From Escherichia coli (GTDB lineage Bacteria; Pseudomonadota; Gammaproteobacteria; Enterobacterales; Enterobacteriaceae): a stretch of 64,000 nucleotides of DNA. A program made the position numbers and the translations under genes. Below the pieces are notes generated by a model. That model did no database searches. It was not told where the DNA came from and saw nothing but the letters and a program-made list of their open reading frames with translations. The DNA lies in assembly GCF_044324875.1 (NCBI RefSeq), contig NZ_CP172185.1. One strand, given 5' to 3'. How positions within the stretch are numbered: the stretch's first letter is position 1; every line of letters starts with the position of its first letter. Shown piece after piece: positions 18,832 to 53,400 of this stretch.

Positions 18832-18924
18832 GTGTTCTGTCCATCCTTCAGTAATCGTTATCTTTTAAACCGTAGACCGACACCCTATCCACGTCGGTCT
18901 ACAGTGCAGGTGAAGCTTAAACTA

Positions 18925-20156: not shown

Positions 20157-22958
20157 TTATTCGACGTTCAGCGCGTCATTAACCAGATCTTGTTGCTGTT
20201 TCTGGTGAACGGACATATACCCTACCGCCGGAGAGGCGGAGGCCGGGCGGCCTGCATAACGCAGAGAAGCCCCAAACGGAATCACTTCACGGAAATGATG
20301 CTGGCTGCAGTACCATGCGCCCTGGTTGAGCGGCTCTTCCTGGCACCAGACAAAATCCTTGACGTGAGCAAACTGCTGCAACACTTCCTGCATCGCTTTA
20401 TGCGGGAACGGGTAGAGTTGCTCGATACGCACAATGGCGACATCGTGTTGATTGTTCTTACGACGTTGTTCCAGCAGGTCGTAATAAACCTTACCAGAAC
20501 ACATCACTACGCGCTTCACGCCCTTCGGATCAAGCTCGTCGATTTCACCGATGGCTGGCAGGAAGGTGCCGTTCGCCAGTTCTTCGAGGCTGGATACCGC
20601 CAGCGGATGACGCAGCAGGGATTTCGGCGACATCACGACCAGTGGACGACGCATCCCGCGCAACGCCTGACGACGCAGCATGTGGTAAACCTGTGCCGGG
20701 GTAGACGGTACGCACACCTGCATGTTTTGCTCAGCGCAAAGTTGCAGATAACGTTCCAGACGCGCGGAGGAGTGCTCCGGTCCCTGCCCTTCGTAACCGT
20801 GCGGCAGCAACATCACCAGGCCACACATCCGGCCCCATTTCTGCTCGCCAGAGGAGATGAACTGGTCGATAACCACCTGAGCACCGTTAGCGAAGTCACC
20901 GAACTGTGCTTCCCAGATAGTCAGAGTGCGTGGTTCTGCGGTGGCATAACCGTATTCAAACGCCAGCACTGCTTCTTCAGACAGTACAGAGTCCCAGACA
21001 CGGAACGCGCCCTGGCCGTTATGGATGTGTTGCAGCGGCGTGTAAGTGGAACCGTTAGACTGGTTGTGGATCACCGCGTGGCGGTGGAAGAAGGTACCGC
21101 GACCGGAGTCTTCACCCGACAGGCGAACCGGAATGCCTTCGTCAACCAGCGTGGCGTAAGCGAGGTTTTCCGCGCCGCCCCAGTCGAACAGTTTCTCACC
21201 GGCAGCCATCGCCTGGCGATCGCCATAAATCTTGGCAACGCGAGACTGCATTTCAACTGCTTCCGGCACCGTGCTGATGCGTTTAGCCAGTTCCTGCAGG
21301 CGCTTCATCTCAACTTTGTTCGGGTACTCTTCGTCCCATTCGTGGTTGAGGTACGGTGACCAGGTGAAAGAGTGCATGTTCATCGGACGCCACTCTGCTA
21401 CCACGCAATCGCCAGCATCCAGCGCATCGCGGTACAGGTTAACCATCTCGGTGGCATCTTCCAGCGTCGCGACTTTTTCTTGCTCCAGCTTGTCAGCGTA
21501 GATTTTGCGCGGCGTCGGATGTTTTTTGATTTTCTGATACATCAGCGGCTGGGTTGCGCTCGGCTCGTCGGCTTCGTTATGGCCATGACGGCGGTAGCAC
21601 ACCAGGTCGATGAAGACATCACGTTTAAAGGTGTTACGGAAATCGAGCGCCAGACGGGTCACAAAGGCAACGGCTTCCGGATCATCCGCGTTAACGTGGA
21701 AAATCGGTGCCTGAACCATCTTACCGATATCAGTACAGTACGGCGTCGAACGGGCATCCAGCGGGTTAGAGGTGGTGAAGCCAACCTGGTTGTTGATAAC
21801 GATACGTACCGTACCGCCAACTTCATAGCCACGCGCTTTCGACATGTTCAGGGTTTCCTGAACCACGCCCTGCCCGGTCACTGCGGCGTCACCGTGGATG
21901 GTAATTGGCAGCACTTTGTTGCTGCTCGGCTCATCAAGTCTGTCCAGACGGGCACGAACAGAACCGATAACTACCGGGCTTACAATCTCAAGGTGAGACG
22001 GGTTAAACGCCAGCGCCAGGTGCACCAGGCCGCCATCGGTCTGGAAGTCAGACGAGAAGCCCATGTGGTATTTCACGTCGCCTGTGCCAAGGTGTTCTTT
22101 ATGTTTACCGGCGAACTCGTCGAACAAGTCTTGCGGTTTTTTACCCAGCACGTTCACCAGCACGTTCAGACGACCACGGTGCGCCATCCCGAGAACCACT
22201 TCCCGGGTGCCGCTGTTGCCAGCGTGGCGGATCATCTCTTTAAGCATCGGGATTAACGCGTCACCGCCTTCCAGTGAGAAGCGTTTTGCGCCAGGGAATT
22301 TTGCGCCGAGGTAACGTTCAAGGCCTTCAGCGGCGGTCAGTTCGCTTAAGAAGCGTTTTTTCTCTTCGCTATTGAAAGTCGCGCGACCAGACTCGATACG
22401 CTGTTGGATCCAGCGTTTTTCTTCGGTGCTGGTAATGTGCATATACTCGGCACCAATCGGGCCGCAGTAGGTTTGCTTGAGGGCTTCCAGCAGCTCGCCG
22501 AGTTTCATGGTTTCTTTGCCGCTGGCAAATGAACCGACGTTGAAGGTCTCCTGGAAGTCTGCTTCGGTCAGATCGTGGAAAGACGGATCCAGATCGGCCA
22601 CTTTATCTTGCTGCCACAGTCCCAGCGGATCGAGATTCGCATGCTGGTGACCACGGAAGCGGTATGCGTTAATGAGCTGCAGGACTTTAACCTGCTTCAC
22701 ATTGGTGTCAGGGTCGGAGATCGTTGAAGAGTAACGTGAAGCGTCTTTCGCCAGGCGGCGGAAATATTCACGCGTTTGAGAGTGGAATTGATCCGGTTTG
22801 ACTCCCGTACCAGGTAACTGCTGGAACGTCGAACGCCAGTTAGCGTCAACCGAGTCAGGATCGGTTAAGAAGTCTTCATAGAGCTGTTCTATCCAGCTCT
22901 GGTTTGCGCCAGAGAGGTAAGAAGAGTCCAACCAGGCTTTCAAAGCGCTGTTCTGCAT
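20157..22958 (-). CDS. sucA: 2-oxoglutarate dehydrogenase E1 component
   Basis: 933-aa [34 protein letters not shown]... Confidence 0.95.
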
Positions 22959-23114
22959 CGTGATCCCTTAAGCATCTTTTTTATGCTTACTTCGCCGTGG
23001 ATACTACCACGCACAGTGATGTGCGTGCCGGGGTTCACTTGCGAGCTCTTGTCTACGTAGTGGCTCGCGAAGGAACCTTTAAAAACTGTCTTAGTGTCAG
23101 GGGCAGTTTTTAAA

Positions 23115-23305
23115 GATTTCCTGCATTTCTTTTGTAGGCCGGATAAGGCATTCACGCCACATCCGGCGCTGTTTGCCTGATGCGACGCTTGCGCGTCTTA
23201 TCAGGCCTACGATTTCTGCATTTCTTTTGTAGGCCGGATAAGGCGTTCACGCCGCATCCGGCACTGGTTGCCTGATGCGACGCTTGTGCGTCTTATCAGG
23301 CCTGG
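23115..23305. repeat. BIME (REP pair) unit tandemly duplicated, two copies of about 96 bp, in the sdhB-sucA intergenic region
   Basis: Unit gatttc(c)tgcatttcttttgtaggccggataaggc.ttcacgcc.catccggc...gcctgatgcgacgcttg.gcgtcttatcaggcct occurs twice head-to-tail (23115..23210 and 23211..23305) with a few substitutions. Confidence 0.8.
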
Positions 23306-23307
23306 GT

Positions 23308-24024
23308 TTACGCATTACGCTGCAACAACATCGACTTGATATGGCCGATGGCGCGCGTCGGGTTCAGCCCCTTCGGACATACACTGACGCAGTTCATGAT
23401 GCTGTGACAGCGGAATACACTGAATGCATCGCTCAAACCGTCGAGGCGGCTGTCAGTCTCGGTATCACGGCTATCGATCAGGAAACGATATGCCGCTAAC
23501 AAGCCTGCCGGGCCGATAAACTTATCGGGATTCCACCAGAAAGACGGACAAGAGGTTGAACAACATGCGCAGAGAATACATTCATACAGCCCGTCGAGTT
23601 TTTCGCGCTGCTCTGGCATCTGTAAATGCTCGCGAGCTGGCGGATTTTGTCCATTATTCAACAGGTAAGGCTTAATTTTCTCATATTGCGCATAGAATTG
23701 TCCCATGTCTACCACCAAATCGCGGATCACCGGTAAACCTGGCAGCGGGCGAATCACAATCTTCTTGCCCGGCTGGTTGAGTGCCGAAATCGGGGTAATA
23801 CAGGCCAGACCATTCTTGCCGTTCATGTTCAGACCGTCGGAACCGCACACACCTTCACGGCAGGAACGGCGGAACGACAGGCTGGGATCTTTCTCTTTCA
23901 GCTGGATAAGCGCATCCAGCAGCATCATGTCGCGACCTTCATCCGCTTCCAGGGTGTAATCCTGCATACGCGGAGCATCATCAACATCCGGGTTATAGCG
24001 ATAAATTGAAAACTCGAGTCTCAT
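23308..24024 (-). CDS. sdhB: succinate dehydrogenase iron-sulfur subunit
   Basis: 238-aa ORF MRLEFSIYRYNPDVDDAPRMQDYTLEADEGRDMMLLDALI... Confidence 0.95.
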   Translation of the reverse strand: MRLEFSIYRYNPDVDDAPRMQDYTLEADEGRDMMLLDALIQLKEKDPSLSFRRSCREGVCGSDGLNMNGKNGLACITPISALNQPGKKIVIRPLPGLPVIRDLVVDMGQFYAQYEKIKPYLLNNGQNPPAREHLQMPEQREKLDGLYECILCACCSTSCPSFWWNPDKFIGPAGLLAAYRFLIDSRDTETDSRLDGLSDAFSVFRCHSIMNCVSVCPKGLNPTRAIGHIKSMLLQRNA

Positions 24025-52654: not shown

Positions 52655-52736
<82 letters not shown>

Positions 52737-52755
52737 GGCACTCATCGCGATATGT

Positions 52756-53300: not shown

Positions 53301-53400
53301 TGCCGGATGCAGCGTGAACGCCTTATCCGGCCTACAAAATAGCGCAAATTCAATATATTGCACCATCTTCCCAGGCCTGATAAGCGTAGCGCATCAGGCA
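53301..53400. repeat. REP pair (BIME) between ybfP and pgm
   Basis: tgccggatgcagcgtgaacgccttatccggcctac ... caggcctgataagcgtagcgcatcaggca; nearly identical to the copy at 60721..60820. Confidence 0.85.

Follow-up and report, generated by a model that had tools for sequence, protein, structure and literature searches.

In BIME-1 elements, one Y and one Z1 REP flank a long L linker that contains an IHF site. BIME-2 elements, by the published definition, are composed of Y and Z2 palindromic units (REPs) in alternating orientation, the head-to-head pair being joined by a short S linker and iterated in tandem, with 2 to 12 REPs in all and a tail-to-tail linker of type s, l or r, and polymorphism of the copy number between strains is documented (PMC3333891, PMC1187871). 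The REP-associated transposase TnpA-REP recombines BIMEs in vitro (PMC3333891), and IS1397 is an insertion sequence specific for BIMEs. On RNA, REP hairpins withstand 3'-to-5' exonucleases and define the 3' ends of transcripts at steady state, and a gene is reported to be translated less when a REP lies less than 16 nt from its stop codon (Liang et al. 2015, as summarised elsewhere). On DNA, BIME-2 elements are enriched in gyrase cleavage sites with a preference for Y REPs, only a subset of these elements being cleaved, and the BIME-2 of the sucB-sucC spacer of K-12 is among the strongest gyrase cleavage sites in vivo (Sutormin et al. 2019). The six-unit BIME-2 REP325 has given rise to the Rfam family RF02564 (naRNA4), the model of which is its 77-nt Y-linker-Z2 unit.

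For the sdh-suc operon of K-12, RNase III sites within the sdhB-sucA spacer have been described, and RNA-seq has revealed an internal terminator with partial readthrough and a secondary promoter that balances it. RNase III sites, internal terminator and Psuc were all described on the K-12 allele of the spacer. The locus has long been known for its REPs, the kind of element is already known, and a copy-number polymorphism of BIME-2 at this position is unsurprising. A published census of the spacer alleles was not found in a literature search.

Structure and classification of the repeat array

The sdh-suc operon lies on the minus strand of the window, by which we refer to the whole 64-kb stretch of E. 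coli DNA that was analysed. Within it, a spacer of 349 nt (22959-23307) separates the upstream gene sdhB (23308-24024, minus strand, an ORF of 238 aa) from the downstream gene sucA (20157-22958, minus strand, 933 aa). Both ORFs were identified by matching to annotated genomes, in 5,092 of which, all from E. coli, the matching genes bear the names sdhB and sucA; the region as such was matched in 5,425 of 5,426 E. coli genomes. The original prediction had proposed a head-to-tail duplication of a unit of about 96 bp between the two genes. Tandem Repeats Finder (23115-23303, period 95, 2.0 copies, 93% matches, score 336) and a repeat search (23118-23208 versus 23213-23303, 93% identity over 91 nt at a spacing of 95) both returned such a tandem repeat, the length of the unit being 95 rather than about 96. 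The two copies are nearly identical (85/91 positions) and, as had been predicted, each is a convergent REP pair with a linker, a Y and a Z2 REP lying inverted to each other. We also looked at whether the homology might be limited to the REP cores, which would have spoken against a duplication of the whole unit. It is not, as it runs past the cores through both kinds of linker.

The array extends from 23116 to 23305 on the minus strand and consists of two head-to-tail units of 95 nt, which in the direction of sdh-suc transcription are a proximal unit U1 (23211-23305) and a distal unit U2 (23116-23210). In each unit, a 7-nt linker joins a Z2 REP to an inverted Y REP and a linker of 18 nt comes last, Z2 preceding Y on the transcript. 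The array starts 2 nt past the sdhB stop codon, inside the sdhCDAB-sucABCD transcription unit, and the first hairpin stem begins 6 nt after the TAA. Read 3' of this codon on the minus strand, the trinucleotide ACC is followed by the first Z2 REP (23270-23305), with a degenerate head that reads CCAG in place of GTAG, by AACCAGT (23263-23269), a short S-type linker of 7 nt that connects the REPs head to head, and by the inverted first Y REP (23229-23262). The tail-to-tail linker of 18 nt, AAAAGAAATGCAGAAATC (23211-23228), forms the junction to the second unit, in which a Z2 REP with intact GTAG (23175-23210), the 7-nt linker AAACAGC (23168-23174) and the second Y REP (23134-23167) follow in the same order. 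The head-to-head linkers of the two units are the same except at 2 positions. The REP motifs were located as GTAGGCCGGATAAG at 23134 and 23229 on the plus strand and as GTAGGCCTGATAAG (23197-23210) and CCAGGCCTGATAAG (23292-23305) on the minus strand. The 18-nt linker recurs after the second unit, and its terminal remnant AAAAGAAATG (23124-23133, minus strand) marks the end of the polymorphic segment. It is succeeded by a conserved AT-rich stem-loop, CAGGAAATCTTTAAAAACTG...CAGTTTTTAAAGGTTCC (23072-23123, minus strand), and by the sucA leader. This stem-loop occurs in every allele of the spacer, those devoid of a BIME included; past the array, the invariant sequence begins with it.

Both units exceed the gathering score of 59.5 of the Rfam family RF02564 on the plus strand, with 86.8 and 77.6 bits, and these matches (23137-23207 and 23232-23302) are the only Rfam matches in the 64-kb window. 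As Y and Z2 REPs alternate in orientation, the RF02564 score is passed and the published definition is matched, the sdhB-sucA array is a canonical BIME-2 with two units and four REPs. In particular, its units contain Y and Z2, not Z1; REPs and inverted REPs alternate, with the head-to-head pairs on a short linker of 7 nt; the two-REP motif is iterated in tandem as two units of 95 nt; and, as described below, the number of units at this locus varies between strains, in one of which IS1397 has inserted into a REP loop. A BIME-1 was ruled out by the presence of Z2 in the units and by the 7-nt linkers, which compare with L linkers of 34-35 nt in the BIME-1 elements of the window.

Elsewhere in the window, two BIME-1 elements (approximately 53302-53398 and 60720-60815) consist of a Y REP, a 34-35-nt L linker with CAATATATTG and a Z1 REP and belong to the IHF-binding type. 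A separate BIME fragment at approximately 52655-52740 contains a Y and a Z2 REP tail-to-tail on a 10-nt linker, ACATCGTCCC. The three other BIMEs of the window match a unit of the array over a single REP core only (35-37 of 38-39 nt), and the Z1 REPs of the two BIME-1 elements, like that of the K-12 allele, are visibly shorter than Z2.

Alleles of the spacer and age of the array

To obtain a census of the alleles, diagnostic probes were counted over 5,426 complete E. coli genomes. The K-12 type with three REPs was the commonest allele (2,257 genomes), 1,761 genomes had no BIME and a small GC hairpin instead, and the tandem junction, indicative of at least two units, was present in 1,376; by difference, 32 genomes carried other forms. 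The copy number thus varies between strains, as had been predicted, and the occurrence of the tandem junction in 1,376 complete genomes excludes in practice that the two units are an artefact of assembly. The 59-nt probe for this junction was matched at ≥99% identity in 290 genomes, which corresponds to the ATC form of the junction found in the window, and at 95-99% in 1,094 genomes, with ACC at the junction in every such array that was read.

Spacers of six lengths were read. The allele of 200 nt has no REP and the small GC hairpin GCCGGGGAAATCCCCCGGC, and that of 300 nt, the K-12 type, comprises a Z2-S-Y unit, a different linker of 12 nt and a short Z1 REP. Two units are present both in the spacer of 349 nt, as in the window, and in one of 360 nt with a sucA leader longer by 11 nt; spacers of 455 nt contain three units, and spacers of 550 nt, in two further strains, contain four. 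Arrays of two, three and four units were read directly, and the period was exactly 95 nt in each. An independent systematic sample of 60 genomes, retrieved with a query covering only the flanks, contained 25 alleles of the K-12 type, 19 without BIME, 12 with two units, 2 with three units, 1 with four units and 1 interrupted allele. The proportions were the same as in the probe census, and the intergenic spans fit two, three and four units. The division of the tandem alleles into these three lengths rests on this sample and is supported by a mean of 2.3 matches to the junction probe per genome; the maximum of six matches in one genome suggests that longer arrays exist.

The alleles are distributed unevenly over two types of flank. 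All 12 sampled genomes with divergent (B2-type) flanks carry two to four units, and 44 of the 47 with the other type have the BIME-less or the three-REP form. Two units on K-12-like flanks, the combination of the window, are a minority form of approximately 5%. Three unrelated architectures share nearly identical flanks (99.8-100% identity over 619 nt). In strain 20A24 (positions 560-759 of the retrieved locus), 35 nt with the GC hairpin stand in place of the whole BIME; the BIME-less allele is a replacement and no simple deletion. The interrupted allele, in strain SK0832 (positions 3160-4955 of the retrieved locus), is a two-unit array whose first Z2 REP carries IS1397 in its loop, and sdhB and sucA are thereby split by approximately 1.4 kb.

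The sucA leader occurs in two haplotypes, which differ at 23041-23068 and 23008-23027. In the first of its hairpins, the stem is either GCGAGC/GCTCGC or GCGGAC/GTCCGC, a double compensatory change, and the loops are unrelated; in the second, the loop is 11 nt longer in B2 strains and in E. albertii. These haplotypes suggest a conserved RNA structure.

Unit-by-unit comparison was informative with respect to the age of the array. The U1 unit of the window differs at 1-2 positions from units that are proximal or internal in the arrays of other strains and at 8 from its own U2, and U2 differs at 1 position from the terminal unit in each of the other E. coli arrays. As each unit is closer to its positional counterparts elsewhere than to its partner, the duplication is old, with a proximal and a terminal type of unit conserved across lineages, and expansions of the array copy the proximal type. 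A scan of genome contigs with a degenerate pattern for the sdhB C-terminus returned 8 loci, among which only E. albertii was informative and no Salmonella or E. fergusonii locus was present. At this site, the E. albertii type strain NBRC 107761 carries four units of 95 nt that are connected by the same junctions, together with a sucA leader of the B2 type. Judged by these sequences, the array would either be older than the split of E. coli and E. albertii or have crossed the species boundary.

Most likely, the length shifts in exact steps of 95 nt because units undergo unequal exchange or slip during replication, or because TnpA-REP acts on them. With regard to the origin of the duplication, the 3' end of sdhB, GTAATGCGTAAACC (23305-23318, minus strand), is similar to the linker between the units, in register with the start of the REP. 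The two agree at 11 of 14 positions in B2-type arrays (chance approximately 4e-5) and at 10 of 14 here, and the junction has the appearance of a hybrid between the copy in the right flank and that in the left. Possibly, a short direct repeat at the sdhB 3' end seeded the duplication by exchange.

A second spacer of the operon varies as well. Between sucB and sucC, the window has 93 nt (18832-18924) with a small hairpin, GTAGACCGAC...GTCGGTCTAC; the corresponding spacer measures 274 nt in K-12, where it holds a BIME-2 of two units, and approximately 365 nt in other strains. The spans of the sdhB-sucA and sucB-sucC spacers were found in the combinations 349+93, 349+274, 300+93, 300+274, 300+365, 360+93, 200+93, 200+274 and 200+365 nt. 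A compensation between the BIME-2 elements of the two spacers was rejected, as all combinations of alleles occur and point to independent assortment.

RNA folding and possible roles of the array

The RNA of the spacer is predicted to fold far better than shuffled sequences (z = -8.6). Each REP hairpin has a predicted energy of approximately -20 to -22 kcal/mol; in the order of transcription the values are -21.1 for the first Z2, -21.3 for the first Y, -21.9 for the second Z2 and -19.7 for the second Y REP. For each Z2-Y pair, two hairpins of approximately 13 bp and a single extended duplex of approximately 30 bp were predicted to lie within 2 kcal/mol of each other. A stable hairpin directly follows sdhB in every allele, the BIME-less one included. 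A scan for intrinsic terminators between 22800 and 23500 returned none, and the REPs are followed by ACAAAAGAAAUG without a U-tract. Because of the empty scan and the absence of a U-tract after the hairpins, direct intrinsic termination at the array is unlikely. A scan with a promoter consensus gave no promoter-like site on either strand of the region, and the internal suc promoter that the original prediction placed in this spacer rests on the literature on K-12. The effect on mRNA stability or readthrough that was also put forward is plausible in view of what has been published on REPs in general.

Based on these results, we consider it highly probable that the locus is a canonical and old BIME-2 array that changes in length in steps of 95 nt and is dispensable, its most likely role being that of an RNA barrier or attenuator, as expected from its family, with likely gyrase sites. 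On mRNA that reads through the spacer, the four hairpins of approximately -20 kcal/mol would, by analogy with other members of the family, block 3'-to-5' exonucleases. In this way they would give the sdhCDAB portion of the transcript a stable 3' end after endonucleolytic cleavage or termination further downstream, and they may partly attenuate transcription into sucA. The extended Z2-Y duplex of approximately 30 bp would have the size that is cut by RNase III and is a possible substrate of this enzyme. At the level of DNA, the Y REPs are likely gyrase sites. A role of the array in protection of the mRNA or in attenuation is likely. The element itself is dispensable: since 1,761 of 5,426 genomes (32%) have no REP at this position, any role is either dispensable or supplied by the GC hairpin that replaces the array.

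The same variability lends weight to a view that does without function, in which the array is a selectively neutral repeat that persists and changes in length only by slippage, unequal crossing-over and TnpA-REP, with no appreciable influence on the expression of sdh and suc. Besides the third of genomes devoid of the array, it would account for the three unrelated architectures on near-identical flanks, for the spread of copy numbers (2 to 4) among B2 strains that are close relatives, and for the nearby sucB-sucC BIME-2, which varies as freely and independently. However, every allele retains a stable hairpin right after sdhB, the K-12 data show processing and partial termination in the spacer, and REPs in general measurably affect the stability of upstream mRNA. 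We therefore regard neutrality as possible but as less probable than not.

A further proposal goes beyond the barrier and attenuator role favoured above. The number of units after sdhB could constitute a heritable, stepwise and lineage-linked setting of the ratio of sdh to suc expression, the link to lineages being suggested by the distribution of two to four units (12/12 on B2-type flanks) and of the BIME-less or three-REP forms (44/47 on other flanks). Such a setting would act via exonuclease protection, RNase III cleavage of the Z2-Y duplex, attenuation and stalling of ribosomes 6 nt past the stop codon. We consider this rather unlikely.

Equally doubtful is that the array acts mainly at the level of DNA, either as a strong, transcription-independent gyrase site or as a cruciform or HU contact that would organise the topology of a highly transcribed operon. 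The known cleavage of BIME-2 elements with its preference for Y REPs, the strong cleavage of the equivalent two-unit sucB-sucC element in K-12 and the implication of Y-Z2 units in HU-dependent contacts would agree with such a function. Against it, cleavage is limited to a subset of BIME-2 elements, a third of the strains lack the array, and the BIME-2 in this spacer does not compensate for a missing one between sucB and sucC, all combinations being found.

The Rfam matches could also be read as two naRNA4-like sRNA genes on the plus strand, antisense to the operon, that act together with HU, given that both units lie above the gathering score on this strand. The RF02564 model is, however, a plain Y-linker-Z2 unit of a BIME-2, so that any such unit will match it. 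Furthermore, neither strand has a promoter-like site in the scan, and the only established transcription is that of the minus (mRNA) strand, on which the units score 53.7 and 45.1, below the threshold of 59.5. We concluded that the matches are family-level matches and no evidence for sRNA genes, the existence of which is highly improbable; automatic annotation with the naRNA4 model would report two antisense sRNA genes where there are merely BIME-2 units. That the duplication is recent and confined to this strain or lineage, as the 93% identity of the copies might suggest, is more improbable still and was rejected by the comparison of units with other lineages: the differences between the copies are common, position by position, to the arrays of B2 strains, and in E. 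albertii this site is occupied by the array as well, with the same junction.

As an example of BIME-2 length polymorphism inside an operon of central metabolism, the locus is clean and well populated, with BIME-less, three-REP, two-, three- and four-unit alleles. Its significance beyond annotation is small; the natural allelic series could show the effect of the number of REPs on stability of the upstream mRNA, readthrough and translation.

Comparison with described BIME elements

The three-REP allele of K-12 (300 nt) is located at the same site and shares with the window the first Z2-S-Y unit, the downstream AT-rich hairpin and the sucA leader. It differs in having three REPs in place of four, the third being a short Z1 REP after a different linker, so that it is an 'atypical BIME' and no BIME-2 array. 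The sucB-sucC BIME-2 of K-12 resembles the array in consisting of two Y-Z2 units within the same operon, but it occupies another spacer, has another tail-to-tail linker and is absent from the window. REP325/naRNA4 (RF02564), located between yjdM and yjdN, has units of the same composition (Y, short linker, Z2; 77 nt). There are, however, six units in REP325 and two here, and the strand that matches the model is here antisense to the only known transcript. With the BIME-2 family of Gilson, Bachellier and Hofnung, as summarised by Ton-Hoang et al. 2012 (PMC3333891) and Chiapello et al. 2005 (PMC1187871), the array has in common the alternation of Y and Z2, the short linker and the tandem iteration, as well as the extragenic position 3' of a gene, the copy number that varies between strains and the targeting by IS1397. 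There is no substantial difference from this family; the first Z2 REP here has the head CCAG in place of GTAG.
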